DNA of 64,000 bases from Candidatus Nitrosomirales archaeon (GCA_049199595.1 JBMCYV010000011.1:7851-71850), one strand, 5' to 3'; positions 2,095 to 24,528 are shown, counted from the first letter of the stretch. Notes: generated by a model from the sequence alone, not told the origin. Made by a program: numbers and translations.

Positions 2095-2466
2095 CTATCG
2101 ACTTTTGATCACTGATTCTTCCTTTTTCTTCCTGCTCATTACAAAGAACGCGGCAGCAACGCCACCAAATATCGTTCCTATTATTGCCACGAACGTACCC
2201 ATCTCACCAAAGGTTCTGCCTAGCATTGCTGTACCTGAACCATAGGCACCGGTCTGTTGTGCGCTGGTGATCCGCTCCTTTGCCAGTATCGTATTTTCAG
2301 TACACGCAAATACGGGGATGCCCAACTGCGTGCATTGTTTGATCTGCTCGGGAGTAGCTACTTGAGCTCCCCCTCCAGGCGAGCCACCATACTGTGCAAA
2401 GGCCGGGATGTAAACTGCAGCTCCTAGCACTGCAATCAAACTCAGAGCGTATACGATTTCTCTCAT
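2095..2466 (-). CDS. small exported protein with C-terminal TM anchor
   Basis: I trimmed the track ORF 2095..2529 to the ATG at 2466 (MREIVYALSLIAVLGAAVYIPAFAQ, a signal-peptide-like N-terminus). The upstream 21 codons of the track ORF are the translated promoter element (copy A). The C-terminus is FVAIIGTIFGGVAAAFFVMSRKKKEE, a TM helix with a basic tail. Confidence 0.6.
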   Translation of the reverse strand: MREIVYALSLIAVLGAAVYIPAFAQYGGSPGGGAQVATPEQIKQCTQLGIPVFACTENTILAKERITSAQQTGAYGSGTAMLGRTFGEMGTFVAIIGTIFGGVAAAFFVMSRKKKEESVIKSR

Positions 2467-2497
2467 TGCATTCATAATAACACATGTAAAACTAAAA

Positions 2498-2531
2498 GCC
2501 CTTACGCACCTAAAGAGCGCTTCAATCATGC
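2498..2531 (-). promoter_or_regulatory. conserved upstream element, copy A
   Basis: Read on the minus strand: GCATGATTGAAGCGCTCTTTAGGTGCGTAAGGGC. A T-rich TATA-like box follows, and ATG 2466 lies 35 nt after the GTAA. It matches copies B and C at 27/30 positions each. Confidence 0.65.
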
Positions 2532-2558
2532 ATATTATCTTAGTTGATGTAACTTTGG

Positions 2559-2747
2559 TTACGCATATTCAACTAATACCTTTTTCTGCCGAGATTCTTC
2601 CGTGCAAACTCTTTGACTCACAATGACCTTCTGAATAGTTATCTTAGCATTACACTGTGGGCAATTTTTTTTGTTCTTTGCAAAATATGTCGCAAGCCAA
2701 AAACATTCTGGACATAGTGCAAATGAAACCTGCTTTGCATCTTGCAT
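2559..2747 (-). CDS. small zinc-ribbon protein
   Basis: 62-aa ORF with two CxxC pairs (CPEC ... CPQC). Confidence 0.5.
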   Translation of the reverse strand: MQDAKQVSFALCPECFWLATYFAKNKKNCPQCNAKITIQKVIVSQRVCTEESRQKKVLVEYA

Positions 2748-3011
2748 TATAATCTAATAGCAATCAAACTTAAAATGTGTTGTGTACAAATAGAGAGTCC
2801 TTATGATGCACAATGTCTTTTAATTTGTTTTATTATATTATATCACACCGTTAAAACCCCAGCAGAATGACAGCCAGACTTAAGAAAGGAAAACCCAGCT
2901 AGGTGGGGAGGCAAAAAATGCCTCTCCACATTATGACATTACAACACAAAACACATTTTACAACATGAGTTATTTGTTCAAATAAAAAAATAATATGTTT
3001 GGTTCTTGCTT

Positions 3012-3287
3012 CTAGAACCTTACATATGGTGGTAGGATCAGAACTCGACCCTGACCCATTCGTGCAAGTCCAAATCCCTCATCGACAACATGTGAGTGCA
3101 GTTCTCGCAACGCGTATTCAGTCTGCTCAAAACTCTTCTTCAAAATCGGCAACATGCTTACGATAAGGATTCTGTCTCCTCTCATCTCGTCCTTGACTTT
3201 CTGCACATCTGCGAGCTTTTCGATCTTCGCGAACTTGAACTCTATGCCCTTGTCGTCTAGCTGTGAAATGTAGGTTTGCTTTTGCAT
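3012..3287 (-). CDS. small cytoplasmic protein, possibly SepF/DUF552-like
   Basis: 91-aa ORF. The pattern KIEKLADVQKVKDEMRGDRILIVSMLPIL...ALRELHSHVVDEGFGLARMGQGRVLILPPYV resembles the SepF core as I remember it (a beta-alpha unit, then a G-rich strand ending in P..V). The family call is tentative. Confidence 0.45.
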   Translation of the reverse strand: MQKQTYISQLDDKGIEFKFAKIEKLADVQKVKDEMRGDRILIVSMLPILKKSFEQTEYALRELHSHVVDEGFGLARMGQGRVLILPPYVRF

Positions 3288-3323
3288 GATAATACAATTA
3301 GCATAAATGATAAAAAGCGTTGT

Positions 3324-3355
3324 GCATGATTGATGCGCTCTTTAGATGAGTAAAC
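3324..3355 (+). promoter_or_regulatory. conserved upstream element, copy B
   Basis: GCATGATTGATGCGCTCTTTAGATGAGTAAAC. The flank AAAAGCGTTGTGCAT is also shared with copy C (AAAAGCATTGCGCAT). The ATG 34 nt after the GTAA is at 3388 and opens a 29-codon ORF. The 144-aa ORF starts 67 nt further on, at 3455. Confidence 0.6.
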
Positions 3356-3454
3356 TTTACTACTGAATTAACATATTATGAACATTGATGATAGATTATA
3401 AGATTAGTCTCTTTGGTAATTTGATAATAACAATTACGAATAACTGTGATAATT

Positions 3455-3889
3455 ATGAAAAGCAACTTGTGCAATGAGTCACCTAATACGAAACAAACAA
3501 TAAAAATATCTACAGCAGATATAGGCGCGCTCCTAAGCGAGTACTCAGAACTTGTACTTTCCTTGAAGACAAGATTCCCGCATACCGATCTAAGATTCCT
3601 TCTGGGACTGATGTCTCACGAATTTCTGTACCCAGAACATGCTCCAACATCGCAGATAGAAATATTCTACAGAGATGATGTGGACCTGAACGCAAAAGGA
3701 GCGTTGTTATCTAAAAGAATTGATAGCGTGCCGGCCGTTTATGATTCTGAGAAACGAGTAGTTATAGAATCTAGACTAGAACTTGACGATATAGGGGAAC
3801 TTGCACAGGATCGTGACATAGAGAGCCTTGCTGGAGAGATAGTTTGCTGTCTTGACACTTTGCTAAACCGTAGAAAATATCTTGTCTGA
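3455..3889 (+). CDS. hypothetical protein
   Basis: Track ORF 3446..3889, trimmed to the first ATG (MKSNLCNESPNT...). No recognisable motif and no signal peptide. Confidence 0.5.
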   Translation: MKSNLCNESPNTKQTIKISTADIGALLSEYSELVLSLKTRFPHTDLRFLLGLMSHEFLYPEHAPTSQIEIFYRDDVDLNAKGALLSKRIDSVPAVYDSEKRVVIESRLELDDIGELAQDRDIESLAGEIVCCLDTLLNRRKYLV

Positions 3890-3998
3890 TTTGAGTTACA
3901 TATAGCAGAAAACCTTTCAGCAAAAATAAGATTGATTCTGTTACTACTTCATATGAAAAGAATGCTAATATAAAAAAAATTGTTAACCTAGCGAAATT

Positions 3999-4661
3999 CT
4001 AGGTTAATTTGCTCATGCTAATACCGCCATCGAATATCCAGTTGTGTCCAGCAACCTTAAGGTCCGAGTGGAAGTTACTCATGTTGCTGACGCTCTGCGT
4101 ACTTGGTGTACTGGGGATACCGCCTGACAGAGCGCCGTCAGCATTCAGCACAAAGTCATTTCCATTTAATGTTAGACCGAATCTCTTGTAGTACACTGCG
4201 GCACCGTTGTTTACTGCGTATGTTTTATCACCTATCTTTACATTGCCCGATTCTACCTGGAACACTACTGCACTAGGATTGTCTCTTATGGATGCTTCAG
4301 CTCTGTGCAAGGATCCCTTTTCCGCTAACACATTCAAGTTGGCAACCTTTATCGTTACTTGGCCACTTATTGGAGCCCATCCATGTGCACTAGGTCCGCT
4401 GGCACCAGATCTAAGGTTAATGCTTGGAGTTACTATATTGGTATGATACCGCGTAAATCCACTAGATGGTGATTCCAACTGTGCTTGACCTGATATTGTT
4501 AACACGTACTCACTTACCTGCTTCGGAGTATTTGGAACGAACTTGTTTTTCATTTCTGGCTTACCATGTGCTGTTACTGCAAATGCAGGTGCCGTTACGA
4601 CAGCAATCATACCAATTAGCATAACAGACATGCTTAATCCAAGGATCACATTTCTTTTCAT
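3999..4661 (-). CDS. exported protein, function unknown
   Basis: I trimmed the track ORF to the ATG at 4661 (MKRNVILGLSMSVMLIGMIAVVTAPAFA, signal/anchor). The track's GTG start lies inside a GGAGGTG Shine-Dalgarno-like box (4677-4671) that sits 9 nt upstream of this ATG. Confidence 0.7.
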   Translation of the reverse strand: MKRNVILGLSMSVMLIGMIAVVTAPAFAVTAHGKPEMKNKFVPNTPKQVSEYVLTISGQAQLESPSSGFTRYHTNIVTPSINLRSGASGPSAHGWAPISGQVTIKVANLNVLAEKGSLHRAEASIRDNPSAVVFQVESGNVKIGDKTYAVNNGAAVYYKRFGLTLNGNDFVLNADGALSGGIPSTPSTQSVSNMSNFHSDLKVAGHNWIFDGGISMSKLT

Positions 4662-4716
4662 TTGTTTATTCACCTCCCTATCATTCGTTTAGCAAAAATA
4701 AAATGAAAAGCATTGC

Positions 4717-4749
4717 GCATTATTGAGACGCTCTTTAGGTGCGTAAGCC
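4717..4749 (+). promoter_or_regulatory. conserved upstream element, copy C
   Basis: GCATTATTGAGACGCTCTTTAGGTGCGTAAGCC, followed by TTTATTAC (TATA-like). ATG 4781 lies 34 nt after the GTAA. Confidence 0.65.
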
Positions 4750-4780
4750 TTTATTACAATTTTAATGAATATATCTTGAG

Positions 4781-5674
4781 ATGAAAACTAAAATTGTCCT
4801 GGCAGTACTAATGTCGATCTTGTTGCCATTGCAAGCAGTCGCCTTCAACGCAGCCTTTGCCGCAAAAACGATGCAGATGCCTGATCAATACTATCCAACT
4901 CTCTTGACGCAATCGACACAATATCCAAATGTAGGATTAAAGTGGATGCCTGATAAGCCATATGCTGGTCAGGAAATAACATTCACAATATCGTTCAAGA
5001 AACCTAGTAACGGTTCACTGCAACCAAACATAGATTACAAATTCGCCATAGCAAAGGATGGTTCCAGTGTATTTACCGTTATGAGGCATTCAAACATGGG
5101 TTCAGATACCATAAAGCAGAAACTTGATAGCGATGGTAAACACATCGTTACAGTAACTATTACAGGCATAGACTTGAAGAAGGTCGATCCAAAAACATCA
5201 GATTTCTCCTTGGTTGTGGTAAAGGCACAGACGCGGAAGCAAACTCCACAAATGCAACAGCAGAAAGAGACTGGGTCAAACATAATGTCACAGATGAGAG
5301 AAGTAAAGAAACCACTGAGAGCAGGTTTAGTTGATGAAAAGGGTAAACACCTAGGCGCTGTGAATATTTTTCAGAAAGATTCACATGCTTTAATCACAGT
5401 ATGGCTACGACCAGTAGGACCTGACGAGCATATTTCAGCTTGGCTAGTTGCTGGCCCAAATGAACAGATAACAAAGAAGTGGAGCCAAGTCGATAGCATG
5501 TCTATGATTAAGATAGGACATGATGAAACCACAAGACATGTAAACGTGTTTAATAAAATACTGAGCTTCGTCCCTGCAAGTGGCGATAAGATAGTTATCA
5601 CCATGGATGACTGCAGCACTGGGCATTGTAAACAGACAACGAATCATATAGCGACTGCAACGTTGAAGATGTAA
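4781..5674 (+). CDS. exported protein, function unknown
   Basis: 297-aa ORF with a signal peptide (MKTKIVLAVLMSILLPLQAVAFNAAFA). No recognisable catalytic motif. Confidence 0.7.
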   Translation: MKTKIVLAVLMSILLPLQAVAFNAAFAAKTMQMPDQYYPTLLTQSTQYPNVGLKWMPDKPYAGQEITFTISFKKPSNGSLQPNIDYKFAIAKDGSSVFTVMRHSNMGSDTIKQKLDSDGKHIVTVTITGIDLKKVDPKTSDFSLVVVKAQTRKQTPQMQQQKETGSNIMSQMREVKKPLRAGLVDEKGKHLGAVNIFQKDSHALITVWLRPVGPDEHISAWLVAGPNEQITKKWSQVDSMSMIKIGHDETTRHVNVFNKILSFVPASGDKIVITMDDCSTGHCKQTTNHIATATLKM

Positions 5675-5752
5675 CAGAAACTCTTTTCTTTTTTTATAAT
5701 TCCAGGATTGCATCGATATGTTATAGTTGCTTCATCTTTCATAGACCCATGG

Positions 5753-5781
5753 ACGATTAGAGCGCTCTTCAAGTTCGGAAC
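5753..5781 (+). promoter_or_regulatory. conserved upstream element, copy D (diverged)
   Basis: ACGATTAGAGCGCTCTTCAAGTTCGGAAC aligns to ATTGAAGCGCTCTTTAGGTGCGTAAG of copy A at about 20/27 positions. CATTAATAATT (TATA-like) follows, and ATG 5813 lies 32 nt after the GGAA. Confidence 0.5.
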
Positions 5782-5812
5782 ATTAATAATTCTCCGAAGA
5801 AGTCATAAAATT

Positions 5813-6547
5813 ATGGTGCTGCAGTATCCTTTTTTTCCTGAGCAAGCATCTAACATACCTCTAAACGACGACTTGTTCTTTGTAACTGTCTTTTCTGCTA
5901 TATTGGCATTCCTAGTTGCATTTCGTGTCTTCAAATTCTATAAGCTAGCTGGCATGAGCGCCCTCCTCGGTATGCCTGTTGGGTTCGCGTTCTTGGCAGC
6001 ATCATACATGCTGGTCAACACAGATCTATGGGTTCACGATGGTACAGAATTAGATGGTGTAATAGACTGGGTGTCATTGGTCATCCTGAGTTATAGTTTC
6101 TCGCTTATGGCAATCTCATATCATTACAGATCAGCTGATTTCCACGATGGTGCTAGACTGGTCAGAGTAATGTCATATGCGATAATTCCACTCATGGGTT
6201 TATTGATGACAGTTGTTCTTTCAACATCTGAACAAAGGGAACTGGTTCCCTTTCAAATAGCAGACGAATATTTTGCCATATTCAATATGGCTGCGATTGG
6301 GTACATATTATTAAAATCTGTTAGAGGTATTCTCACTGATGGAACCACAAGGCCGATGTATATTCCAGTTGCGTTCGCGCTTTTGTGGATAGGACAATTC
6401 CTAGCATTTGCATCTGCGGTGAGTGGGGAACTAACAGAGATCATCATGCCAGAGGCAGCAAGTCTAGCAGGGTTACTTATCTTTACATACACATTGTACA
6501 GTCGCGTGTTAAGGGGTGGTAAGGTTGCCAAGAGAGCGACGCCATAG
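5813..6547 (+). CDS. polytopic membrane protein, function unknown
   Basis: I trimmed the track ORF 5708..6547 to ATG 5813 (MVLQYPFFPEQ...), because the first 35 codons cover element D and the TATA box. About 7 hydrophobic helices. Confidence 0.65.
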   Translation: MVLQYPFFPEQASNIPLNDDLFFVTVFSAILAFLVAFRVFKFYKLAGMSALLGMPVGFAFLAASYMLVNTDLWVHDGTELDGVIDWVSLVILSYSFSLMAISYHYRSADFHDGARLVRVMSYAIIPLMGLLMTVVLSTSEQRELVPFQIADEYFAIFNMAAIGYILLKSVRGILTDGTTRPMYIPVAFALLWIGQFLAFASAVSGELTEIIMPEAASLAGLLIFTYTLYSRVLRGGKVAKRATP

Positions 6548-6803
6548 GCTTCAGATTTACCGTGAGATATTATCAGCTGTAGAGCTAGAGATGATGAACG
6601 ATGGTAATGTTAGACCAACGAGGGTGCAGCACCTTGCGAACATGTCATATGATAAACTGAAGAAATATCTTCTTGAACTCGATAAGTATGGTCTTTTAAG
6701 CATGAAAGATTCAATTATACAGATGACTGACAGAGGTCGCGAATTTTTAAAAAGTTACGATAATCTGGTCAACTTCATGCACACGATGGGTCTTGACTAC
6801 TAG
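6516..6803 (+). CDS. small winged-helix DNA-binding protein
   Basis: 95 aa. RLQIYREILSAVE...RPTRVQHLANMSYDKLKKYLLELDKYGLLSMKD..IQMTDRGREFL fits helix-turn-helix plus wing. Same layout as ORFs 17623..17898 and 59851..60207. GTG/TTG start overlaps the upstream gene end. Confidence 0.7.
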   Translation: MVRLPRERRHRLQIYREILSAVELEMMNDGNVRPTRVQHLANMSYDKLKKYLLELDKYGLLSMKDSIIQMTDRGREFLKSYDNLVNFMHTMGLDY

Positions 6804-10636: not shown

Positions 10637-11788
10637 TTACAAGATATCTACAGTTGTGCTTCGAACAGGCGAAATTGCATTTGGACTATCTATGCTTTCC
10701 CAGACAAATACTTCGATAGAAAACATGCCCTGAGCATCAGGAATCCATGATTGTGCAGCCTTGAATGAATCTTCTGGAGGAAGCTCTCCTGTTACCCATG
10801 AAAGTGATACCGTTACACCTTCATCATCCTTTATCTGAACTATATATGCAAATGGTTGCTTCTTGTTTTGATTGTTAGTTATTTCAGACTGAATCAGTAC
10901 TTGCTCACTTGCAGAAACAGATTCTACGCTTTCTCCTCTGTTGTCAACAATCTCTGGTTCCGATGCAACGGCTCTTTCGATTGGTGGAATCAAGTATCCA
11001 ATGCTTGCTGAAGCAAACAACTCTTCAACTTCAACAGTTTCGAAATTATTGCTACTTAGAGCAGCTGGTGCAGGCAAACTGTTATCTGTGTACTTCACAG
11101 TTATGGTGTCACCTTCGGAAACTCTAAGCCTAGTACCAGTGCTCTCCTCATCCAATGTGAATGTAAGAAATTCCGCGAACAATCCAGTCCTGTCACCTGT
11201 CTCTCGTAGTGTTACCAATAATCCGCCTCTGTCTGCAGTTGACCAGACTCTTACGTCCAGCGTGTCTATTGTGTCTGGACGCATGTTCTTATCAACGTCT
11301 ATAACGATTATCTTTGCCATGTCTGTCACTTTGTATGCCGGTTCTGCAAGCATCACAGAACTCGAGTAAAAGTCAACATCCACACGTGCTGAGAATTTTC
11401 GATCAGATGTACTAAACTCGACTATGAGATCATCGTCCCTTTGAACCACCATATCTCCAGGCCAGAGATTAGGATCTGGCGTCAACCCAACGCTAGTTGC
11501 AAAGATGCCTCGATTTTCTGCAATTTCAGTAAGCACAATTTTATGAGCTGGTTTCTGCATCCTTGCCATTGAACTGGTAAACACATTTGCTGTTAGCGTA
11601 TCTTTCTTGTCGGGATCAGAATTTGCTTTCTGGTAGTTTATCGCAGCAATAACCTCATCAAAGGGCAAGTATACCCGCTTATCGAACGCGATTTCAGGTT
11701 CACTCGCCACAGAAAAGGACGTTGTGAATCCAGTAGCAAGAATAGTGACTAGAACTGCAGCTGCAAATAACCTATAAGGTGTTTGCAT
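10637..11788 (-). CDS. exported multidomain protein, paralog 1 (two ETG-type modules plus the shared C-terminal module)
   Basis: I trimmed the track ORF to ATG 11788 (MQTPYRLFAAAVLVTILATGFTT, signal). Strongly similar to the next gene over DTIDTLDVRVWSTADRGGLLVTLRETGDRTGLF...GTRLRVSEGDTITVKYTDNSLPAPAALS and over the last ~110 aa. Confidence 0.75.
   Translation of the reverse strand: MQTPYRLFAAAVLVTILATGFTTSFSVASEPEIAFDKRVYLPFDEVIAAINYQKANSDPDKKDTLTANVFTSSMARMQKPAHKIVLTEIAENRGIFATSVGLTPDPNLWPGDMVVQRDDDLIVEFSTSDRKFSARVDVDFYSSSVMLAEPAYKVTDMAKIIVIDVDKNMRPDTIDTLDVRVWSTADRGGLLVTLRETGDRTGLFAEFLTFTLDEESTGTRLRVSEGDTITVKYTDNSLPAPAALSSNNFETVEVEELFASASIGYLIPPIERAVASEPEIVDNRGESVESVSASEQVLIQSEITNNQNKKQPFAYIVQIKDDEGVTVSLSWVTGELPPEDSFKAAQSWIPDAQGMFSIEVFVWESIDSPNAISPVRSTTVDIL
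10640..10966 (-). other. shared ~110-aa module, copy 1 (C-terminus of paralog 1)
   Basis: ASEPEIVDNRGESV..EQVLIQSEITNNQNKKQPFAYIVQIKDDEGVTVSLSWVTGELPPEDSFKAAQSWIPDAQGMFSIEVFVWESIDSPNAISPVRSTTVDIL. Confidence 0.7.
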
Positions 11789-11864
11789 GTTATAATTATG
11801 ACGCCATATATTATTGAACTTTCTCACTTTTGTATCAATTGACAAACCATATCCGCAACTGAAT

Positions 11865-12998
11865 TCACGAGAGAACGGTAATAGTCTTCATTCTAACCGG
11901 AGATAATGGTGCAAGATTGGTTAAACTATCCCAGACAAATATCTCTACGGTATACTCGTCTGGTCCTGAAGGCATCCAAGATTGAGCTACTTTTAGAGAC
12001 TCCTTTGCTGGTAGTTGTGCACTAATCCAGGACAATGATTCAGTTATTCCTTCGGAATTCTTCACTTGCAGAATATACACAAAAGGTTGCTTCCTGCTCT
12101 GAGTATTGGTTACTTCTGACTGCACAAGTATCTGCTCGCCGATAAATACCTGTGAAACACTCTTCCCAAAAGAATCAACTATTATTGGTTCCGAAGCTGG
12201 TGCCCTATCCATCGAAGGAACTTCCTGACCGAATATGCTCTCGGCAAATATCTCTCGCACCTCCACAGTATCAATACCACCAGCAGAGAGTGCTGCAGGA
12301 GGTGGAAGCGTGTTGTCAGTGTATTTTAGTATTATTCGATCACCATCTGCTACTCTCAACCTAGTGCCAGAGCTTTCCTCATCAAGCGTGAATGTCATGA
12401 TCTCCTCGAACACTCCTGTAGCTGCTCCCGTCTCCCTCAAGGTTACAAAGAGTCCTCCCCTGTCGCTGTCAGACCAGATTCTGGCATTTAGAGTATCTAT
12501 CGTGTCGGGATTCCTGTTCATGTCGCGATCTGCAATAGTTATCGTAGCCTGATCGCCAAATTTGTACGACGCCTTGTCGAAGAATGCGGTTCCTACATGG
12601 TAGTTTACGAATATGCTCTGCGTAACTACCGTATCTTCATCGATTCTGAAGGAAACGCTCAAACCATCTTCCCTTCTGGTCTGCACATCTCCAGGAAACT
12701 TTGAAAGATCTGGGCTCAAACGAATATCATCTTCAAAAACCCCAGTGCTCAATCCAGTTTCTGGCAAGGAAAGCTGCTTCTGTGAAAATGAGCTCGAGAT
12801 CATGACCCTGATGGTATCTATACGATCGCGATCCTGATTGGAATCCGGAGAAAAGATCTTGATAACTACTTTGTCGAAGGGAGTGTAGACAGTTCCTGAC
12901 TGATCTACTTGAGCGTATGCAATATGTTGCGTACTCTGGTATGGATAAATCATGATTATCAGAAATAATGAAATAAGAGACAGTTTTTCGGATTCCAT
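11865..12998 (-). CDS. exported multidomain protein, paralog 2
   Basis: Signal peptide MESEKLSLISLFLIIMIYPYQSTQHIAYAQ. Same domain order as paralog 1 (DTIDTLNARIWSDSDRGGLFVTLRETGAATGVF...GTRLRVADGDRIILKYTDNTLPPPAALS, then the shared module). Confidence 0.75.
   Translation of the reverse strand: MESEKLSLISLFLIIMIYPYQSTQHIAYAQVDQSGTVYTPFDKVVIKIFSPDSNQDRDRIDTIRVMISSSFSQKQLSLPETGLSTGVFEDDIRLSPDLSKFPGDVQTRREDGLSVSFRIDEDTVVTQSIFVNYHVGTAFFDKASYKFGDQATITIADRDMNRNPDTIDTLNARIWSDSDRGGLFVTLRETGAATGVFEEIMTFTLDEESSGTRLRVADGDRIILKYTDNTLPPPAALSAGGIDTVEVREIFAESIFGQEVPSMDRAPASEPIIVDSFGKSVSQVFIGEQILVQSEVTNTQSRKQPFVYILQVKNSEGITESLSWISAQLPAKESLKVAQSWMPSGPDEYTVEIFVWDSLTNLAPLSPVRMKTITVLS
11868..12197 (-). other. 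shared ~110-aa module, copy 2 (C-terminus of paralog 2)
   Basis: ASEPIIVDSFGKSV..EQILVQSEVTNTQSRKQPFVYILQVKNSEGITESLSWISAQLPAKESLKVAQSWMPSGPDEYTVEIFVWDSLTNLAPLSPVRMKTITVLS. Confidence 0.7.
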
Positions 12999-13102
12999 CT
13001 AGAAACTAGTGTGTATCTTAGAGTTATAAACTATTAATTCGTATCAGAAAGACAAATACAAGACTTTGTTACCGTAATCAGCTTGTTCTGTCATTCGTTT
13101 TG

Positions 13103-13219
13103 CTAGCCATAGCTCAGTCAGGGACAGCACCGGAGGTAATGGTGAAACTTTTAACTTGACTGAAGAGATCCGGGGTCTCGGGATCGATGCCTGATGGGCC
13201 GGCTTAAACGAGAATTAGC
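13103..13219 (+). tRNA. intron-containing tRNA, best reading tRNA-Lys(UUU) with two mini-introns around the anticodon loop and a possible third intron in the 3' acceptor strand
   Basis: Canonical 5' half: T8 A9, GCTC, AGTCAGGGA, CAGC, A26. Anticodon stem is CCGGA (13130-13134) / TCCGG (13169-13173), separated by 34 nt. T arm is TCGGG-ATCGATG-CCTGA (13178-13194), with the same unusual ATCGA T-loop as the tRNA at 36203. The only canonical 7-nt loop whose flanks fold as BHB motifs is CTTTTAA (13148-13154). Acceptor CTAGCCA pairs with TGG (13195-13197) plus TTAG (13215-13218). Genomic length of 117 nt = 73 + 13 + 14 + 17. See the finding for details and caveats. Confidence 0.55.
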
Positions 13220-13706
13220 GTAAGCCTTTGCAAGAACCAGACTTTCCTACTGGTAATCTGACACCGCCCTGTAATCTGGATGGCGTCACAACTTTCTCGA
13301 TGCAGTCAGGTACATTCCATGCTGTTAAGGTTGCACCCAATCCACATGAACAGGTCGAATTGGACGGCTATAAATTCGAATGGTTACCACGGAATAAAGA
13401 AGAAGCTTACTTTTTGTGCGAGGTAATCGACATTCGCGTACCTGCACTGCACCTAACGATCAGGAATACGCCTTTAGACCATGTAATTCTGCGGTTGACC
13501 TGCATCGGAATTCTATCACATTTTATATGGAGAAAAATTTGGCTATGCTTATAATTCCAAAGAAGAGTAAGGATACTTTGGTGAAGATATATGGTAACAT
13601 ACCTCGCTAAACCTGAAGTAAAGTAACATAATACAATACAATATCGACTAATGTATTGTCAGATGCTGCTTATGGGCTCTTAAGAAATGTGGTTGATGAC
13701 GGTTCA

Positions 13707-15719
13707 TCAATGTTCTACACTAAGCACGATTCCCTTCAATCCAGAGATTTGTACAGCAATTGGTTCAGTGGGATTATCTGAATAAGAAGCATTTGCAATG
13801 GTTTGTAACGCTAAAAGGTGTTCTCCTAATGGTGCATTGTCTCTCAGGTTAATTTTAATTTTGAATTTTGACATGTGGTATCCAGCATATCCAGTAAAAA
13901 CATCATGTTGAGGCACTATGTCCAAGGTTAACCAGCCCGGTAATTGGGAAATTCTATTTTCCAGCAGATTGTAATACTTAATGGCGATAGTGACATTTAC
14001 GGTTACATAATTAATTCCTCCATCAGCTCTTATCTTTCCCATAACTGCAGTCTTTATCTCCCCCTGCAGTGTTGCTGAAGAACCTGGAAAAATCTGTATA
14101 TGGTGAGGATGAACAGAACCATCTGCAAATGGACCGACAACTGTCTGGATTCCAGTGCTTCTGTTTACTCCAACATCCCTGTAAGTGCTTGCGCCGTCAA
14201 GTGCAACTGCTTTCAACCTCAACTGATAACCTGGATATTCAGAATACTCTGAAGAGATCAACGACAAAACGTACACGTTGAGCCTCTTTACCTGCCCAGC
14301 TTTCATAACAAGATGGTCTGGAAACGCTTTACCAAATAGATCGCCGGCTGTTAGCACTGATAGGTTCACTTCCCTATCTCTGCCTGAAAATACGTACACT
14401 GGAAATTCTGTCCGCGCCCTATCTATCGAGTTTCCGCTGATATCAATGCCTAATGGAGAGACAATTAAGAAGTCTTTTTGTTCTTCAACCCGAAAGACTC
14501 CCTTGCCTTGAACATCAAGTATCAGGTGAAATGTGGAGCCTGGCCTGTTCTCTGTTTCCGGTGTTACAGCAACTATATACTTTCCTAAGCTCGCATCTTT
14601 AGCGACATCAAACCGCAATGAGAAATTTAGATCCTTGAACTTTGGAACCGTTTCACTCTGTGTTACGTTCATGGTTGGAGTGACTGACAACCATTCAGGA
14701 AGGACGATCAACGTATTACTAGTCAAGTCTAACAACTGTATCTTCTTTATTTCTGGTACTGGTGCGAACCCTGGTGCTGAGCCAAAAGATCCTTTCACAG
14801 AACCTGAAGAGCCTCTCTCGACTTCAAGTAGTCTAGGACTGTAACGCAGATACGGATCATCTACCGACCAACCACCTAAAAGATTTACACGTACCACCTT
14901 GCTGCCCAAGACACTCCCATGATCATCCAGTGCCTTTATGATGATTATATCGTTGATTGGAACAGCGATGTTCTCTAGAAACAAGTTGGTAACAGCTCTA
15001 TGCCCAGGCTTTGCATGTAATGCGCTAGGAACTAATTTGGCAAAAAGGCTATCTTGTGCGCTGGTTATTGTCAAATGAACATCTTCTTCACTCCTGAACT
15101 TCAGAAATACTGGCATGTTCAACCCATACCGTCCATCACTCGGAGAAATGTTGCCTACCAAACCTTTCACTCCTATACTTACTGTGTTAATATTCTGGTC
15201 TGGCTCTCGGAGCACAAGTGTTGTATTTACAGAGACATGTAGTGTCCTGACCGAGTCTAGTGCCTTTGGGTTATCAAGGTTGTCCCAAACGAAAAACTCG
15301 ATTGTGTAGTCCTGAGCCTTCTCTGGGATCCAAAGCAACTTTAGTGTGGAAGATTCGCTAGGCTTGATAGTTTTTCCTGTCCAAGACAATCGATCAGCAT
15401 AACCATTCCGATCCTTTATCTGCGTTATCAGCAGAAAAAGTCTTTCCACAGTGTCTCTATTGTGAACATTGAATTGAATTAGAACTTCTTCGCTAGAATA
15501 CACTTCTTTCAGAGGATTACCTAACATGTCGTATAGAATAGGTTCATCTTGCGTTATATTTGTAGCACTGCTAAAATCATTCTCAGCGTGGACTTTTGCA
15601 GAAGAATTAATTCCAGTTACGTGAATGTGATAGGCGGAAACTATTTGAAAAATGGGACAACTTAACAAAAGAATACTCATTACCATACCAAGTAACAATA
15701 TTCTCCTTTTAACCGACAA
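13707..15719 (-). CDS. large exported protein with the shared module near its N-terminus
   Basis: 670 aa. Signal/anchor RRILLLGMVMSILLLSCPIFQIVSA. Residues ~58-164 are the shared module. The remainder is beta-rich with no catalytic motif I recognise. Confidence 0.75.
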   Translation of the reverse strand: MSVKRRILLLGMVMSILLLSCPIFQIVSAYHIHVTGINSSAKVHAENDFSSATNITQDEPILYDMLGNPLKEVYSSEEVLIQFNVHNRDTVERLFLLITQIKDRNGYADRLSWTGKTIKPSESSTLKLLWIPEKAQDYTIEFFVWDNLDNPKALDSVRTLHVSVNTTLVLREPDQNINTVSIGVKGLVGNISPSDGRYGLNMPVFLKFRSEEDVHLTITSAQDSLFAKLVPSALHAKPGHRAVTNLFLENIAVPINDIIIIKALDDHGSVLGSKVVRVNLLGGWSVDDPYLRYSPRLLEVERGSSGSVKGSFGSAPGFAPVPEIKKIQLLDLTSNTLIVLPEWLSVTPTMNVTQSETVPKFKDLNFSLRFDVAKDASLGKYIVAVTPETENRPGSTFHLILDVQGKGVFRVEEQKDFLIVSPLGIDISGNSIDRARTEFPVYVFSGRDREVNLSVLTAGDLFGKAFPDHLVMKAGQVKRLNVYVLSLISSEYSEYPGYQLRLKAVALDGASTYRDVGVNRSTGIQTVVGPFADGSVHPHHIQIFPGSSATLQGEIKTAVMGKIRADGGINYVTVNVTIAIKYYNLLENRISQLPGWLTLDIVPQHDVFTGYAGYHMSKFKIKINLRDNAPLGEHLLALQTIANASYSDNPTEPIAVQISGLKGIVLSVEH
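15228..15548 (-). other. shared ~110-aa module, copy 3 (N-terminal region of the 670-aa protein)
   Basis: DEPILYDMLGNPLKEVYSSEEVLIQFNVHNRDTVERLFLLITQIKDRNGYADRLSWTGKTIKPSESSTLKLLWIPEKAQDYTIEFFVWDNLDNPKALDSVRTLHVSV. Confidence 0.65.
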
Positions 15720-15936
15720 TTCTAACCACCATTGGATTCGAACACATGAGGAATGAGTAGTTGATCCAAGTATATTGATATTACCATTTGCATATTACAG
15801 TTCTGTTTCAGAACTTTCAGAAATAAAAAAAATTTACTCAAATAAGATTTTTGGCGTAAGATTACGGAGCCTGCTAACCTGCTAGAGTTCCTGATACACC
15901 GAGAAATAAAAACGGGGGATTGTGATAGCTTTATTA

Positions 15937-16875
15937 CTACCACAATGATGTTTCCTGAGGTTTGCATGGATTGGGGCTGCAAGTTCTAGCATCCCATTGT
16001 ACTGTTCCGGCAGACTGAGAACCATCTGTTAATAGCGCTTGTGGATATACGTTGTTGAAAGTGATGCCGCCCACATAGACACTTATCTTAATACCCTGAT
16101 AATTAGTCCACCATGTTATGTCGCTAGCCCCTTGGTATAACCTTGCATTGTAGCCACTAAGCAATTTAGTTTGCGGAGGGGAGAAGTCATAGCTATCAAC
16201 AAAGAACATGCTATTCTGCTTGAGTTGGAAATTACCGGTCTGGTCAGGTGCTTCGGCGGCGAATTGGAAGAACTTCTCGTCCAGGCCGTTGCCACTGTAG
16301 CAAGAGCTACCTTTACACTCACCGAAAAGGAAGTAGGTAGTGCTCTCATAAAATTTCTTCAAGTAAGAGTTTGTTGCTGTAACCGAGGTACTGTCATTCT
16401 TATAGCAGGTATGACCAAAGAGCACCCTACTTTTATCAGAATTAAAGTATGCGTTTCCTGTGATGTGATTCAAGTCGACTTTCTTACATATTTCTATATT
16501 AAGAAATTGTTGTATTTGACCCCAGCTAGTAAAAGCACTGTTTGGACCCCATACCTGATCTGGATTATACATCGACCCATCGGTATCCCACTGATTTACT
16601 ACTTGATATACAAAACCATTGACACCTCCGGTTCCTGAAGTGCCGGTCGAACCTGCAAGTGAAAGCACAGAAAGCAGGTCTTGGCCAGGATTACCATTCT
16701 TGCTGAAAAAGTAATTATTAAACTGTCCTTTATCAATGTGGTATATTGTGGTGCCGAAATATCCATACCCTCCGATATATGGTTGATCCGCATATGCTAC
16801 ACTGATTAATCCTGAAATTGGTAAGAGTATGGCAAAGCTAGTCACAACAATTGTTTTAGTTAGTTTTGTTGTCAT
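15937..16875 (-). CDS. exported Cys-containing protein, function unknown
   Basis: 312 aa. Signal peptide MTTKLTKTIVVTSFAILLPISGLISVAYA. Gly/aromatic-rich, with several Cys pairs. Its start codon shares A16875 with the upstream stop codon (ATGA), indicating translational coupling. Confidence 0.65.
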   Translation of the reverse strand: MTTKLTKTIVVTSFAILLPISGLISVAYADQPYIGGYGYFGTTIYHIDKGQFNNYFFSKNGNPGQDLLSVLSLAGSTGTSGTGGVNGFVYQVVNQWDTDGSMYNPDQVWGPNSAFTSWGQIQQFLNIEICKKVDLNHITGNAYFNSDKSRVLFGHTCYKNDSTSVTATNSYLKKFYESTTYFLFGECKGSSCYSGNGLDEKFFQFAAEAPDQTGNFQLKQNSMFFVDSYDFSPPQTKLLSGYNARLYQGASDITWWTNYQGIKISVYVGGITFNNVYPQALLTDGSQSAGTVQWDARTCSPNPCKPQETSLW

Positions 16876-17501: not shown

Positions 17502-17622
17502 TAACTAAATAATAGCTGGAGAACTAGATAAGCCTCGCTCAGCATCTAGTACGGACTGTATAGTAAGTATTAATGTTCTATTACTTTGGTCAGCACTGCA
17601 GAAGGTAAAAAGAAATTATTAT

Positions 17623-17898
17623 TTATTCTGCATACAATAGTTTGATGAGTTCTCTTCCATTTTCTGTAAGGCGTACAAGCTTTTTCTTTCCATCAGCAAA
17701 GGTTTCTACAAATCCAAATTTTTCCAAAAATCTTACATATCTGTGACACGCAAAATGATTCGTTCCAGTCTTCATCTGGAGGTTTGTTATGCCTATCGGG
17801 CTAGAGTCAGATAAACTATTCAAGAACCGAATCAGAACTTCTAAATCTATCCTTTTTAATGATATTTTATTCTGAGCCGCCGCTCGCGGCATGATCAT
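17623..17898 (-). CDS. small winged-helix DNA-binding protein
   Basis: 91 aa. IDLEVLIRFLNSLSDSSPIGITNLQMKTGTNHFACHRYVRFLEKFGFVETFADGKKKLVRLTENGRELIKLL has the same wHTH layout as 6516..6803. It is the only non-exported product in the 13.7-24.5 kb array. Confidence 0.65.
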   Translation of the reverse strand: MIMPRAAAQNKISLKRIDLEVLIRFLNSLSDSSPIGITNLQMKTGTNHFACHRYVRFLEKFGFVETFADGKKKLVRLTENGRELIKLLYAE

Positions 17899-18029
17899 GT
17901 GTCATAAATATATAGTTATTACTATTTAAGGCTTCTTTGGCGATTTATGTCCAAGTAAGGTTAACTATTGTTCAGCAGTTGGTGTTCCATCTGATCTCTT
18001 GGACGCAAAAATCCAATCTTTAGAACTTA

Positions 18030-20474: not shown

Positions 20475-20520
20475 TAGTCACCACTACCCATTTGCTCACT
20501 ATCATGCTTCCAACATATCA

Positions 20521-23500
20521 TCAGCAGAGTTTTACCGTCAGTGTTGACTGTTCCAGATCCCAACATACGCTATGCAATGATTTTGTAAAGGCTTTTGACC
20601 TGATAACGAATTCCATAGATTCACCGGCACTCAGCGGATCATCCTCCGTGCTGAACTGAATCGTCTTTGTCTCTGTATCTACACTACTCGTCCAGCTAAC
20701 AGGAAGCTTGTAGTCGACCTTATCGATATTATCAAGCGACAGATCTATCAAGTTTAGGCGCAGGTTGCTGATATCACGGTTCTTGATCATGACCTTCATA
20801 GCTTCGCCCTTCTGCACTGTAGTAACCTGTATCGGTTTATCATTTGGCACTACATCTACTTTGTAATTGAATACCTTCTTCATGGGTATGAAGTTGTCAG
20901 CACTTCCTATGCCTATCATACTTACTTGCACTGTATGCAATCCTGCTTGCTTGAAGGTGTACTGGTATACAGCATTACCATTTTCTGTGTTGAGCAACGG
21001 CAGCTCTGCCACTTCCTTGTTGTCCTTAATTACTCTAAAGTCATAGTTCAGGTTGCTCAGCATATTTTCATCGGCAGCAGTAAAAGCTAGTTCAAATGAA
21101 ACTGGCTCGTCCTGCATCACCTTACTTGGAGACCATTTCAGATCAGCTCTGATTCGCAACGACTCTGACTCTTGCACACTCAAACCCACTGGATCAGTTG
21201 TAGTCTGCTCAGTAAGCATGCCAGTCGATGTTACTCTAAGTTTTGCCTCGCCAGAATCTAACGGAGTCCATTTCAGGTTTACTGTTGCAGGCTCCTGTTT
21301 CGATACTAATGTGAACTTTGAATCAGCGTCTGTCCATTCCTGACCGTCAAAGCTATATTGAAGCGCTACTTTGGTTCTGTCGTACTCAAACTCGTCATTT
21401 GCTTGCTGAACTCCAACGGATGCCGAAACTATAACGTTAGTTCCTGTAAGTACTGGTTTGGAAGATTCGTTCAACTCGTTGCATACCTCGTTTGTGCATG
21501 CCTTTACGTTATCAATCCTTATTGTAAGCTTGAGCTTAGCTTCTTCAATGTCGATCAGAGTAGCCTTTGCCCATGTCTCCGGTAGTACAGAAATAGCCCC
21601 TGCAGGCCATGCGTTTCTATACACATCAAATATCCTGACGGAGTTTGGATTTTTACTTTCTGATGGGTGATCGCCGAATGTTCCCTCGGCAATGAACATG
21701 CTGAACGCTTCGCTCTTTGTAAACAACGGAATTGCCACTTCAGCAACCCAGTGTGTAGCCTTCGTCTCTCCTGGTAGATCTGCAACATACACTCTACCTT
21801 GCGTATCGACAGCGATACCTTCAGTGCTTAAATTGTCAAACTGTCCAAGGCTGGAGCCTTTCGAACCCCACTCAGTTACGTAGTTACCATACTTGTCAAA
21901 TTTCTGCACTCTGCTGTTGTCATTGTCCAGAACGTACACATTGTCCTGAGCATCAATCGCTATACCACGGGCATTTTTGAACTGACTCGGACCATATCCA
22001 GCTGTTCCCCATTTTGCCAAAAAGTTGCCCTCGCTGTCAAACTTCTGTATTCTATTGTTACCAGTATCAACTATGTACACGTTGTTTTCCGAATCCAGAT
22101 CCATTGCGGTTGGCTTTGTGAACTGACCGTCACCTGTACCTGAAGACCCCCATTTTGAGATCAACATTCCGTTAGGGTCAAACTTCTTTGCTATCTCATT
22201 CTCCCTGTCAACGATGTACACGTTACCATATTGATCAACATCGATTCCGTCTGGAGTCCACGATAATATAGCGTTCTTGGCATATTCAACCATTTTTACA
22301 TAAATCTGATCTTTGAATATGTGCAGTATCTTCCATATATGGCCGCTTTCGACGATGTAGGCTCCCTTGCCATTTTCTTCAACAAGTTTGGCATCTATAA
22401 TGCCTATTGGACTGTGAGAATCAGTGTCGAAAACTATGTAGTGTTCTCCCTTTGGAATGTCTTGTACAGCGGGCGCTTCCTTAACATCGCTACCCCATCT
22501 CAGCAGGAAATTACCGTTGGCATCAAACTTCTGAACCCTCTTGTTGAACGGATCTGTAATATACAAGCCATCAGACGCATCTACTGCAATACCAAACGGA
22601 GCGCCGAACTCTCCAGAACCCGCACCTTCAGACCCCCATTCCGCGAGGAAGGTGCCCTCTCTGTCGAACTTTTGAACCTTCTTGTTGTAGATATCTGTGA
22701 CATACACATTTCCCTGCGAATCAAGCGTTATGCCTTCGGCGCTCATGAAGTTGCTAGTGCCAGAGCCTTTGGAACCAAACTCGTAAACGAATTTACCATC
22801 TGAGCTGAATTTCTGTACTCTGTAGTTGCCAGTATCTATAACATACAGGTTGTCTAAGGAATCTATAGCAAGCCCATGAGGGCTTATCAACTGTCCCGGT
22901 CCTGATCCTCTAACTCCAAACTTAGAGATGAAGTTGCCGTTTGGGTCGAACTTCTGTATTCTGTTGTTAACGCTGTCGGCAACATACACATTATCATTTG
23001 AATCTATTGCAATGCCGTATGGTGCCTTGAACATACCATCCTCGATCCCAAATGTACCCCATACCTTGAGCTGATTGCCGCCAGAATCAAACTTTACGAC
23101 TCGGTTATTGCCCTGCTCGACCGCGTAGATGTTTCCCTGCGAGTCAGCCGCAATTCCTCTCGGATAGACCATTGCGCCGAACGACTTTATGTAATCGCCA
23201 TCATTGTCGAACATATTCACAGTACCAGTTCTTCTGTCAGCAACGTACACGTCTCCAGAGGGACCAACTATGATAGATTCTGGGCTCTCGAACAAGTCAT
23301 GGCGCTTGTTCTCTTCTTGATTCTGAAATCCAGCGTCTGCCATGCCAACAGAGAGCAAGCCCATAGAGCCGAAGGAGCCCAAGAACTTGCCATACCTGTC
23401 AAACTTCTGCACCCTTGCATTACCTGTGTCTGCAACGAAGATGCTTCCGTCAGAACCCAGTGCAATTCCTGTAGGATCTATAAACTCTTTGAATTCTGTA

Positions 23501-24528
23501 CCAAGAGAACCGAAACTGCCAAGCAACCTTCCGTCCGCACTGAACTTGCTTATCGTTCCACTGTCGCTGTCAAGCACGTAAATGTTACCTTCTGCATCAA
23601 TCTCGAGTCCAGCTATACCAAGCATACCTTTGTATGATGTTGACGCCTTGTCTCTAAGCGAGTCCAAAACATTCACAACTTTTCCTTCTTGATCGAATAT
23701 CTGCACTCTGATATCTCCACCCTCTTCCGCACTGGCCCTGAACTGATGTTTCTCCATTCTGTCCCCAGCGAGTTCCGTTCCCAATCTAAAGGAAGTGTAA
23801 GTTCCATCCCTGAATACCCTGAAGATGTACACCTCATCACCAGATTTGAATTGGTCTCCAACGTTGTTCTTGTCAATTCCGATTTCTACAAAGTCCTTCG
23901 CGTCGAACTTCTTGTCCGGAACATCAAAGATGCCGTAGAGAATGCCATTGCTGTAGTAAGCATTGAAAGCAATATTACCTTCGATATCGGTTGGATTATT
24001 CTGGAACGGTTTCCAATGTTTTGAATCGTACTTATGTGCCCACTCGCCAGAATTCGAATCTATGGCACCATCAACATTAACTTGCAGGAACGGTGATGCT
24101 AGTATAGAGATGCGGTCGGCAACCCTGAAAGGAGTTAATTCCTGATCATAAACCATATACTGGCTTGCATATCTTGCGCCCACAACCCAGATTCCAGGTG
24201 ATGCGTCCTTGCTCAGCTTAAACTCATAGGAGAATAGTCCGATATTATCATCGTTGGGTTCTGGCAAAACCTCTTCAGCAAGAAACAACTTGCCAGTTGG
24301 ATCAAGCACCTCGATCTTCGTAGGAACTTTATCTCTAAACGGAGTTACGGTCCCAGAAACGCTGACTGTTTCCCCCTGCATGTACACATTGTCGTCAAGA
24401 TCGATTGTCATGGAGTTACGGTTATTGTATACTGCAAAACTTTGCGTTGTATATATTGACGCTAAAAGCACAGTCAATACTATTGCCGCAGACAGAACTT
24501 TCATTATTGGATAGTTTATAGCTCTCAA
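20521..24528 (-). CDS. exported NHL-repeat protein (two six-bladed propellers) with extra N- and C-terminal domains
   Basis: 1335 aa. Signal/anchor VLSAAIVLTVLLASIYTTQSFA. Twelve repeats of the NHL type (GIAxDsxgNvYVxDxxNxRvQKFDxxGxFxxxWGsxGxGxGqF). Confidence 0.9.
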   Translation of the reverse strand: MRAINYPIMKVLSAAIVLTVLLASIYTTQSFAVYNNRNSMTIDLDDNVYMQGETVSVSGTVTPFRDKVPTKIEVLDPTGKLFLAEEVLPEPNDDNIGLFSYEFKLSKDASPGIWVVGARYASQYMVYDQELTPFRVADRISILASPFLQVNVDGAIDSNSGEWAHKYDSKHWKPFQNNPTDIEGNIAFNAYYSNGILYGIFDVPDKKFDAKDFVEIGIDKNNVGDQFKSGDEVYIFRVFRDGTYTSFRLGTELAGDRMEKHQFRASAEEGGDIRVQIFDQEGKVVNVLDSLRDKASTSYKGMLGIAGLEIDAEGNIYVLDSDSGTISKFSADGRLLGSFGSLGTEFKEFIDPTGIALGSDGSIFVADTGNARVQKFDRYGKFLGSFGSMGLLSVGMADAGFQNQEENKRHDLFESPESIIVGPSGDVYVADRRTGTVNMFDNDGDYIKSFGAMVYPRGIAADSQGNIYAVEQGNNRVVKFDSGGNQLKVWGTFGIEDGMFKAPYGIAIDSNDNVYVADSVNNRIQKFDPNGNFISKFGVRGSGPGQLISPHGLAIDSLDNLYVIDTGNYRVQKFSSDGKFVYEFGSKGSGTSNFMSAEGITLDSQGNVYVTDIYNKKVQKFDREGTFLAEWGSEGAGSGEFGAPFGIAVDASDGLYITDPFNKRVQKFDANGNFLLRWGSDVKEAPAVQDIPKGEHYIVFDTDSHSPIGIIDAKLVEENGKGAYIVESGHIWKILHIFKDQIYVKMVEYAKNAILSWTPDGIDVDQYGNVYIVDRENEIAKKFDPNGMLISKWGSSGTGDGQFTKPTAMDLDSENNVYIVDTGNNRIQKFDSEGNFLAKWGTAGYGPSQFKNARGIAIDAQDNVYVLDNDNSRVQKFDKYGNYVTEWGSKGSSLGQFDNLSTEGIAVDTQGRVYVADLPGETKATHWVAEVAIPLFTKSEAFSMFIAEGTFGDHPSESKNPNSVRIFDVYRNAWPAGAISVLPETWAKATLIDIEEAKLKLTIRIDNVKACTNEVCNELNESSKPVLTGTNVIVSASVGVQQANDEFEYDRTKVALQYSFDGQEWTDADSKFTLVSKQEPATVNLKWTPLDSGEAKLRVTSTGMLTEQTTTDPVGLSVQESESLRIRADLKWSPSKVMQDEPVSFELAFTAADENMLSNLNYDFRVIKDNKEVAELPLLNTENGNAVYQYTFKQAGLHTVQVSMIGIGSADNFIPMKKVFNYKVDVVPNDKPIQVTTVQKGEAMKVMIKNRDISNLRLNLIDLSLDNIDKVDYKLPVSWTSSVDTETKTIQFSTEDDPLSAGESMEFVIRSKAFTKSLHSVCWDLEQSTLTVKLC
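21775..23631 (-). repeat. coding tandem repeats: 12 NHL units of ~45-48 aa (8 + 4, split by a ~77-aa insertion)
   Basis: Protein residues ~300-918. Units begin near residues 304, 350, 415, 455, 500, 547, 594, 641, then 758, 803, 850, 898. The periodicity is at the protein level (diverged DNA), so this is not a CRISPR or satellite. Confidence 0.8.

Follow-up and report, generated by a model that had tools for sequence, protein, structure and literature searches.

A candidate operator repeated at leaderless promoters, and its putative Sso10a-like regulator, in a Candidatus Nitrosomirales archaeon

A 64,000-nucleotide (nt) stretch of DNA from a Candidatus Nitrosomirales archaeon (GCA_049199595.1, JBMCYV010000011.1:7851-71850), referred to below as the window, carries a ~30-bp element in five copies (A to E) within 3.3 kb, each lying at a nearly constant distance from a start codon. 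Copies A to D precede the genes named after them and copy E precedes a Zn-ribbon gene; gene D, which encodes a membrane protein, is followed by the gene of a small winged helix-turn-helix (wHTH) protein with an Sso10a-like fold. We propose that the element is probably an operator recognised by this adjacent wHTH protein, which would act as an autoregulator, with activation as the favoured sign of regulation and membrane protein D likely providing the signal. The window belongs to the Joint Genome Institute (JGI) metagenome contig Ga0376077_0000656 (88.5 kb), window position p being L004 position p+5220. Ca. Nitrosomirales is an order of ammonia-oxidising archaea (PMC10811736).

The repeated element and its promoter context

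Four copies of the element, A to D, had been noticed in a preliminary description of this DNA, and pattern matches, an independent repeat search and a matrix built from relatives all show that they are real. With no mismatch allowed, a 30-nt degenerate pattern found A (2502-2531, minus strand), B (3324-3353) and C (4717-4746), with 0.00 matches expected from shuffled sequences, and a shorter pattern which also catches D (5755-5774) gave 4 matches against 0.40 expected. An unprompted repeat search recovered the same copies in pairs, A/B and A/C over 31 nt at 90% identity, A/D over 32 nt at 75% and B/C over 49 nt at 80%. A position matrix made from six sites, all of them from other genomes, was run over both strands of the window (~128,000 positions), and its four best positions were A (31.3 bits), D (28.6 bits), B (18.6 bits) and C (16.6 bits). 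In a matrix scan of 69 kb, that is, the 64-kb window together with 5.2 kb upstream of it, the scores were 48.1 bits for A, 43.8 for D, 38.4 for C and 36.3 for B. Copies A, B and C do agree closely with each other, at 25-28 of 30 positions over the 30-nt core rather than at a uniform ~27/30 as first described, and the 5′ flank AAAAGC(G/A)TTG(T/C)GCAT said to be shared by B and C is present. Since proteins A, B, C and D are mutually unrelated, the repeat is not a by-product of gene duplication.

The earlier statement that the 64 kb hold no further copy stands for strong copies, none of which was found by pattern and matrix scans in the rest of the window or in the 5.2 kb upstream. It fails for a fifth, diverged copy, E (2782-2811), which raises the total from four to five. 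Copy E has a matrix score of 13.0 bits compared with a shuffle maximum of 7.9, it was picked out on both strands, and its orthologue in the close relative L006 (GCA_040961615.1, 86% nucleotide identity over the region) scores 23.9; with the relatives-only matrix its score of 13.7 against a null mean maximum of 12.4 is not significant alone. It shares the 5′ flank of B and C (AAAAGaCATTGTGCAT), its outer arms are symmetric (GTGCAT...GTACAC), and it is conserved both in L006 and in the distant L018. The other ~65 kb contain no copy. A site at 21350 (10.9 bits with the relatives-only matrix) lies inside an NHL-repeat gene and within the null range, and was rejected.

When the copies are aligned on a central GC/GC step, a common layout emerges, consisting of a 15+15-nt site, 3-5 nt ending in AA, a TATA box, 21-25 nt and the start codon, with AGAGCGCTCT as the operator centre. 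The distance from site centre to start codon is 48-53 nt in all 12 promoters examined, namely A to E of the window, those of L017, L018, L020, L021, L022 and L024, and that of a 91-aa gene divergent from B. At A to E the TATA box ends 21-25 nt before the ATG, with the start sites being predicted ones, as in an archaeal leaderless core promoter, for which we took an A/T-rich TATA box of 8-10 bp centred ~26-27 nt before the start, a purine-rich B recognition element (BRE) upstream of it, and a start codon that forms the 5′ end of the transcript. The same TATA-ATG layout is found at more than 12 unrelated genes of the window (a CTTTAWNTAA-like TATA box, 21-27 nt, ATG, often with (G)TAA before the TATA box), and leaderless transcripts are therefore the local norm. 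Given this norm, the terminal G(T/G)AA, which had been counted as part of the specific element, is a generic BRE instead, the specific sequence being the ~30 bp that precede it (about -64 to -35). The gaps of 35, 34, 34 and 32 nt given earlier between this G(T/G)AA and the ATGs at 2466, 3388, 4781 and 5813 are exact.

The core had also been described as near-palindromic, but about a sequence that needs correcting, the true symmetric core being TTAGAGCGCTCTAA. Arm symmetry amounts to 8/15 in copy D and 5-7/15 in copies A to C, where 3.75 is expected by chance. The TATA-ATG spacing of 21-25 nt and the D copy, which is conserved and palindromic in relatives, support the earlier suggestion that a transcription factor binds just before the BRE/TATA of leaderless promoters. 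We envisage a promoter module made up of a ~30-bp operator, an ordinary BRE (G/C-R-N-AA) and a TATA box. The operator may originally have been dyad-symmetric, with ATGGAYGATTAGAGC/GCTCTAATNGTTCAT as its putative ancestral form (the slash marks the centre, here and below), and its centre would be situated ~50 bp upstream of the start codon, which is the presumed transcription start of the leaderless genes.

At B, C and E the 5′ flank of the operator doubles as a TATA box of the opposite strand. From the centre of operator B, the ATG of the 91-aa gene (3287) lies 50 nt to the left and ATG 3388 lies 52 nt to the right; from copy C, a divergent 220-aa gene is reached via a short leader carrying GGAGGTGA; and on the other side of copy E there is the divergent TATA box CTTTTAAT (2817-2824). 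Because B, C and E lie between divergent TATA boxes, the 91-aa and 220-aa genes are probably also controlled. With the operator placed between two divergent BRE/TATA pairs, one bound complex could govern both directions. Within the clade, the operator appears to have been recruited to at least three more promoters (A, B and C) besides the degenerate fifth one (E), and the local regulon might comprise up to ~9 genes, mostly for small exported or membrane proteins.

The far side of copy E holds no open reading frame (ORF) longer than 11 codons, although the TATA box at 2817-2824 predicts a plus-strand transcript from ~2846. The intergenic DNA at 2812-3011 is nearly identical to that of L006, exceeding the identity of coding DNA, and an 11-bp hairpin (2903-2913 / 2919-2929) is retained in the distant L018. 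The segment 2846-2990 is a candidate small RNA of the same regulon, with one conserved hairpin, no covariation, a folding z-score of -1.37 and no Rfam match.

Conservation of the element and its association with a D-wHTH gene pair

L006 and L013 keep, in synteny, all copies within their retrieved DNA, and both are too close for footprinting. More distant homologues of protein D and of the wHTH protein (50-71% protein identity) were traced to short contigs, and the D promoter has the same site in L017, L018, L020 and L021. In relatives of 50-70% protein identity no other non-coding block is conserved, and the site takes the form of a clear palindrome (ATTAGAGCGCTCTAAT). In a five-lineage alignment of the D promoter the invariant columns concentrate in the operator-BRE-TATA part, while the remaining upstream DNA is essentially unalignable. 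The site of L021, ATGGATGATTAGAGC/GCTCTAATAGTTCAT, has an arm symmetry of 12/15 with a 16-bp perfect palindrome, and that of L017 contains a 14-bp perfect palindrome, TTAGAGCGCTCTAA.

This pattern bears on the view that the element has no dedicated factor at all, the similarity having been left behind by a promoter cassette that was recently duplicated or recombined in a plastic gene island and now drifts neutrally. Such events do occur, since an 81-nt direct repeat (89% identity) of L018 duplicates the whole promoter module around a Zn-ribbon gene, and the neighbouring genes vary between lineages. A neutrally drifting sequence is nevertheless hard to reconcile with an operator that is conserved, and even more palindromic, at 50-70% protein identity where the flanking non-coding DNA can no longer be aligned, or with a distance to the start codon that is fixed within 5 nt over 12 promoters. 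We regard a neutral relic as very unlikely.

It is still less credible that the copies are ends of mobile elements (miniature inverted-repeat transposable elements, MITEs, or other inverted repeats), recombination sites or an RNA-level leader element, even though copy A is inverted relative to B, C and D. No copies occur elsewhere in the 69 kb, where every copy faces a gene start at a fixed distance, so that the dispersed repeat considered in the preliminary description did not appear, and viral contigs gave 0 matches. A scan of species-representative genomes with TTGANNCGCTCTTTAGNTNNGTAA, in a collection without the source genome or a pattern-matching close relative, returned 3 chance matches, all in bacteria; metagenome contigs scanned with the degenerate pattern, in a collection without the source contig, returned the syntenic relative L013 and 3 chance matches. 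As for an RNA element, Rfam gave no match at gathering score over the whole window (which also holds no tRNA gene) and none at E<=1 over 2400-6000, B lacks the 4-bp stem that A and C could form, and the predicted start sites lie downstream of the element. Fixed geometry, deep conservation, confinement to the cluster and the lack of any RNA-family or structure signal together lead us to reject the relic, mobile-end and RNA explanations.

The element accompanies a particular pair of genes. Wherever the flanks were readable, a copy was present no more than ~1.2 kb from the D-wHTH pair, namely in the window, L006, L013, L017, L020, L021, L022 and L024 (in L018 the contig stops short of the wHTH gene). 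The motif is absent at C-homologue loci without the wHTH gene (L008 and L012), and also at L023, whose 59%-identical wHTH has a different partner gene. L022 and L024 have copies of the A-C type shortly downstream of the wHTH gene, where they belong to another promoter and the ATGs are at +48 and +50; one copy precedes a gene for a secreted trypsin/HtrA-like protease and the other a small Cys-rich gene. An upstream resemblance in L008 (CGTAAG..CCTTT) was considered as a copy of the motif and judged to be BRE/TATA only.

Two contigs show further peculiarities at the D homologue. The two units of the L018 repeat (384-464 and 885-965) each contain a complete D-type operator and TATA box, and between them lie the Zn-ribbon gene and the DNA upstream of it, an insertion that separates the C homologue from the D homologue. 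Duplication of the promoter cassette went along with a gene rearrangement, and the upstream copy faces no ORF. In L017 (~236-283) the leaderless ATG of the D homologue is directly followed by an in-frame TGA, beyond which homology to the N-terminus of window D continues for ~14 codons; the TGA may be an assembly error, mark a pseudogene or reflect a start shift.

The candidate regulator and the sign of regulation

Which protein reads the operator? The wHTH protein (92-95 aa) matches the Pfam family HTH_45 (PF14947) with 48.1 bits against a cut-off of 25.5, over model positions 1-75 of 77, and PF14947 is present in all 9 of its homologues. Its structural model, with a predicted local distance difference test (pLDDT) score of 83.7, consists of helices 3-25, 31-38 and 42-54, strands 58-61 and 64-67, and a helix 69-87, and its best structural matches in a Foldseek search of the PDB are Sso10a (1r7j) and Sso10a-2 (4hw0), with a template-modelling (TM) score of 0.71. 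In the model it has the Sso10a fold, a1-b1-a2-a3-b2-b3 followed by one long a4 helix. At the level of sequence the relationship is more distant: the protein stays below the cut-off of the NCBIfam family Sso10a_fam (NF053610; 49 vs 60 bits, E 4.7e-13), and phmmer against 1r7j gives an E of 0.53.

The wHTH gene overlaps the 3′ end of gene D by 23-32 nt, and an overlap exists in every lineage read (L017, L020, L021, L022 and L024 included), which argues for co-transcription from the D copy and hence for autoregulation. Among the proteins encoded near the motif, the wHTH protein is the only recognisable DNA-binding protein that accompanies it in all lineages read. This co-occurrence with the D-wHTH pair supports the earlier nomination of the neighbouring wHTH as candidate regulator, the binding itself being deduced. 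We suggest that the Sso10a-like protein from 6516/6525..6803 recognises the operator; its gene would probably be translationally coupled to D and co-transcribed from the D copy, so that the regulator would control its own operon. We favour a protein that activates by recruiting TFB/TBP, the signal likely coming in through membrane protein D. The copies, their geometry and conservation and their association with the D-wHTH pair are observed; which protein binds, whether it activates or represses, what D does and where transcription begins are what we infer, and for D as signal input it is the conserved, probable translational coupling to the wHTH gene, and that only, which suggests the role.

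Does the bound protein activate or repress? Archaeal activators typically bind immediately upstream of the BRE, as at the activating sites of EarA, the ara-box and the upstream TrmBL1 sites, whereas repressors cover BRE/TATA or bind downstream, and can hinder TFB/TBP sterically (PMC5512572, PMC4706686 for the positions; PMC5512572 for the hindrance). As the site lies just upstream of the BRE and overlaps it marginally, activation is favoured by this position rule. The promoter-proximal arm (GTTCRK / GTGCGT) covers ~4 bp of the 7-bp BRE window, and for this reason repression by BRE occlusion is a serious rival: the same wHTH protein on the same operator would be a repressor or autorepressor, its bound arms excluding TFB/TBP until a signal, possibly via D, releases it. 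At B, C and E the arms on both sides border on divergent BREs, which would suit a repressor as well. Repression is also common among small local wHTH regulators whose genes share a transcript with that of a membrane partner, as in the BlaR1-BlaI type. Against repression, most of the site (-64 to -39) is upstream of the BRE, a position typical of an activator (PMC5512572, PMC4706686), and neither the TATA box nor the start site is covered. We consider repression a realistic possibility, though short of probable.

The operator could also be genuine and be bound by another factor, such as the 62-aa Zn-ribbon protein, a protein from the HTH_45-like ORF at 17626..17901 or one encoded elsewhere, the wHTH gene then being merely one of the regulated genes. 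Small Cys-rich or Zn-ribbon genes do recur beside operator copies (window E, L018 and L024), a weak HTH_45 paralogue is encoded 11 kb away, and the outer arms of the D copy are unlike those of A to C. On the other hand, no other recognisable DNA-binding protein goes with the motif throughout the lineages read, the copies of L022 and L024 adjoin the wHTH gene itself, and the Zn-ribbon gene is absent from L020-L022. Binding by another factor therefore seems unlikely to us.

Several points weigh against the wHTH protein as an activating autoregulator. Known Sso10a proteins are antiparallel coiled-coil dimers with a sequence-independent architectural role, and those characterised act as non-specific chromatin proteins; specific sites are explicitly left open (PMC4941522). 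The second HTH_45-like ORF (17626..17901, minus strand; 23 bits, just below the Pfam cut-off) lies ~11 kb from the cluster and has its own TATA-ATG promoter without a copy of the element. The co-occurrence of operator and wHTH could be mere synteny, given that the operator precedes D and D adjoins the wHTH gene. The D promoter of L022 (~90-125) bears a different palindrome, CTGACTGGGAAAATTCCCCGGTCAG, at the usual operator position. Copies A to C are weakly symmetric and have RYGCAY as outer arms as against ATGGAC/GTTCGG in D, and one protein may not read all copies equally. Finally, the overlap of the promoter-proximal arm with the predicted BRE is as compatible with repression as with activation.

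Protein D offers few clues of its own. No Pfam family matches it, not even peptidase M56 or the penicillin-binding domains, and its structural model (pLDDT 38.8) is unusable for a fold search. A profile search puts the D family at 78 representative clusters among 1.84 billion proteins, and ten of these representatives compared with Pfam gave only sub-threshold or marginal matches, to DUF7521, HisKA_7TM and DUF5985.

Beyond the local proposal of an operator read by the adjacent wHTH protein, it is tempting to imagine that in ammonia-oxidising archaea Sso10a-type proteins include sequence-specific local regulators, and that D and the wHTH together form a previously undescribed minimal transmembrane signalling module, which would detect something at the envelope and turn on a rapidly evolving group of exported or membrane proteins (with an HtrA-like protease in one lineage) via a 30-bp operator between divergent promoters. 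This wider idea is speculative, and we hold it to be rather doubtful.

Genes of the cluster and comparison with known systems

The features of the cluster are collected in Table 1. Three of the four ATGs that the preliminary description took as gene starts (2466, 4781 and 5813) hold; the one at 3388 does not, as gene B begins at ATG 3455. For gene A, the alternative ATG 2475 is lost in L006 while ATG 2466 is retained, and database gene calls start D at 5813, so that the ORFs 2095..2529 and 5708..6547 are over-extended, as had been said. ATG 3388 opens a 29-codon ORF (3388-3477) which is out of frame with gene B and overlaps its ATG. This ORF was considered as a leader peptide and rejected, its stop not being kept and many non-synonymous changes being present in L006. 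Since the ORF is unconserved, gene B probably has a leader of ~67 nt (3388-3454); either this is so, or the transcription start is a different one. A start like ATGAT(C)ATAGA also follows the L022 operator copy.

Table 1. Operator copies, promoters and genes of the cluster (window coordinates; a slash marks the operator centre)
Feature	Position	Strand	Description
Gene A	2095..2466	-	123 aa; signal peptide, C-terminal hydrophobic anchor; no family match
Promoter A	2503-2499 (BRE-like); 2498-2489 (TATA); 2466 (ATG)	-	AAGGG, BRE-like; TATA CTTTTAGTTT; 22 nt; ATG
Operator copy A	2504..2533	-	ATGCATGATTGAAGC/GCTCTTTAGGTGCGT; identical in L006
Zn-ribbon gene	2559..2747	-	62 aa, CPEC...CPQC; downstream of copy E; L018 homologue next to D gene
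Operator copy E (diverged)	2782..2811	-	GTGCATCATAAGGAC/TCTCTATTTGTACAC; Zn-ribbon ATG 2747 50 nt from centre
91-aa gene, divergent from B	3012..3287	-	behind minus-strand TATA TTTTTATC 3309-3316
Operator copy B	3322..3351	+	GTGCATGATTGATGC/GCTCTTTAGATGAGT; identical in L006
Promoter B	3355-3364 (TATA); 3388 (ATG)	+	AAA; TATA CTTTACTACT; 23 nt; ATG
Gene B	3455..3889	+	144 aa; no hydrophobic segment; no family match
220-aa exported-protein gene, divergent from C	3999..4661	-	leadered, GGAGGTGA before ATG; behind minus-strand TATA TTTTCATT
Operator copy C	4715..4744	+	GCGCATTATTGAGAC/GCTCTTTAGGTGCGT; kept in L006, L007, L013
Promoter C	4749-4758 (TATA); 4781 (ATG)	+	AAG; TATA (C)CTTTATTACA; 22 nt; ATG
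Gene C	4781..5674	+	297 aa; signal peptide
Operator copy D	5749..5778	+	ATGGACGATTAGAGC/GCTCTTCAAGTTCGG; orthologous sites in L017, L018 (two copies), L020, L021
Promoter D	5782-5789 (TATA); 5813 (ATG)	+	AAC (BRE part); TATA ATTAATAA; 23 nt; ATG
Gene D	5813..6547	+	244 aa; membrane protein, 7 predicted helices; no Pfam assignment
Sso10a-like winged-helix gene	6516..6803	+	start GTG 6516 or TTG 6525; candidate regulator

Just 6 homologues of gene C were found in 5.8 billion proteins. The 91-aa protein weakly resembles SepF (Pfam SepF, E 0.018, short of the cut-off). Directly downstream of the operator cluster there are two radical S-adenosylmethionine (SAM) genes, probably cofG and cofH to judge from a CofH_C domain in the second, and a TldD-family gene. 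Farther on, 10637-24504 holds a series of large genes whose products have extracellular-type domains, among them one with a weak SlaA-like match in precomputed annotation (11865..12998), a 1327-aa NHL/beta-propeller repeat protein (20521..24504), and immunoglobulin (Ig)-like and fibronectin type III (Fn3)-like proteins. The operator cluster therefore borders a region apparently rich in cell-surface genes.

Almost nothing is known of how ammonia-oxidising archaea regulate their genes, and no member of Ca. Nitrosomirales is in culture. A literature search found no paper describing the motif, nor one describing an HTH_45 regulator in Nitrososphaerota. The element is real and conserved, and the locus is probably a conceptually ordinary local autoregulated gene switch; it presents a compact, testable candidate regulator-operator pair, with one protein of 92-95 aa and five natural site variants in 3.3 kb. 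If the assignment is true, it would supply the first candidate specific target sequence for the Sso10a/HTH_45 fold. The promoter-operator cassette is re-used before unrelated secreted-protein genes in different lineages, and several gene starts in the region have been corrected by the analysis.

Several known systems resemble this locus in part. Sso10a/Sul10a of Sulfolobales (HTH_45; 1r7j, 4hw0) share with the window protein the winged helix, the long C-terminal helix and a length of ~92-95 aa, but the known members are abundant, apparently sequence-independent and have no known target site (PMC4941522). The window wHTH, at 22-24% identity to Sso10a, is by contrast associated with a particular conserved operator and has a partner gene that encodes a membrane protein. 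Like the EarA boxes of the Methanococcus fla promoter, the Sulfolobus ara-box and the upstream TrmBL1 sites, the element is a cis-element immediately upstream of BRE/TATA (PMC5512572, PMC4706686). The sequences and the regulator families of these systems, and of GvpE, are unrelated to those found here, where activity is read from position only. The upstream activating sequence (UAS) of GvpE in Halobacterium is a single site between divergent gvp core promoters, much like the layout at B, C and E. Local autoregulators of the MarR/PadR type follow the same logic of a palindromic operator with autoregulation, and MarR, MntR and DtxR structures match the wHTH model at lower rank, but the window protein lacks the arrangement of dimerisation helices of the MarR type and has no Pfam MarR match. 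In the bacterial BlaR1-BlaI and MecR1-MecI systems, the gene that comes after the one for the membrane protein encodes a small wHTH protein with a helical dimerisation tail, and the pair is autoregulated via dyad operators in a divergent promoter region. Protein D has no M56 or penicillin-binding match and the transcription machinery is archaeal; the resemblance to BlaR1-BlaI and MecR1-MecI is an analogy of layout rather than homology.

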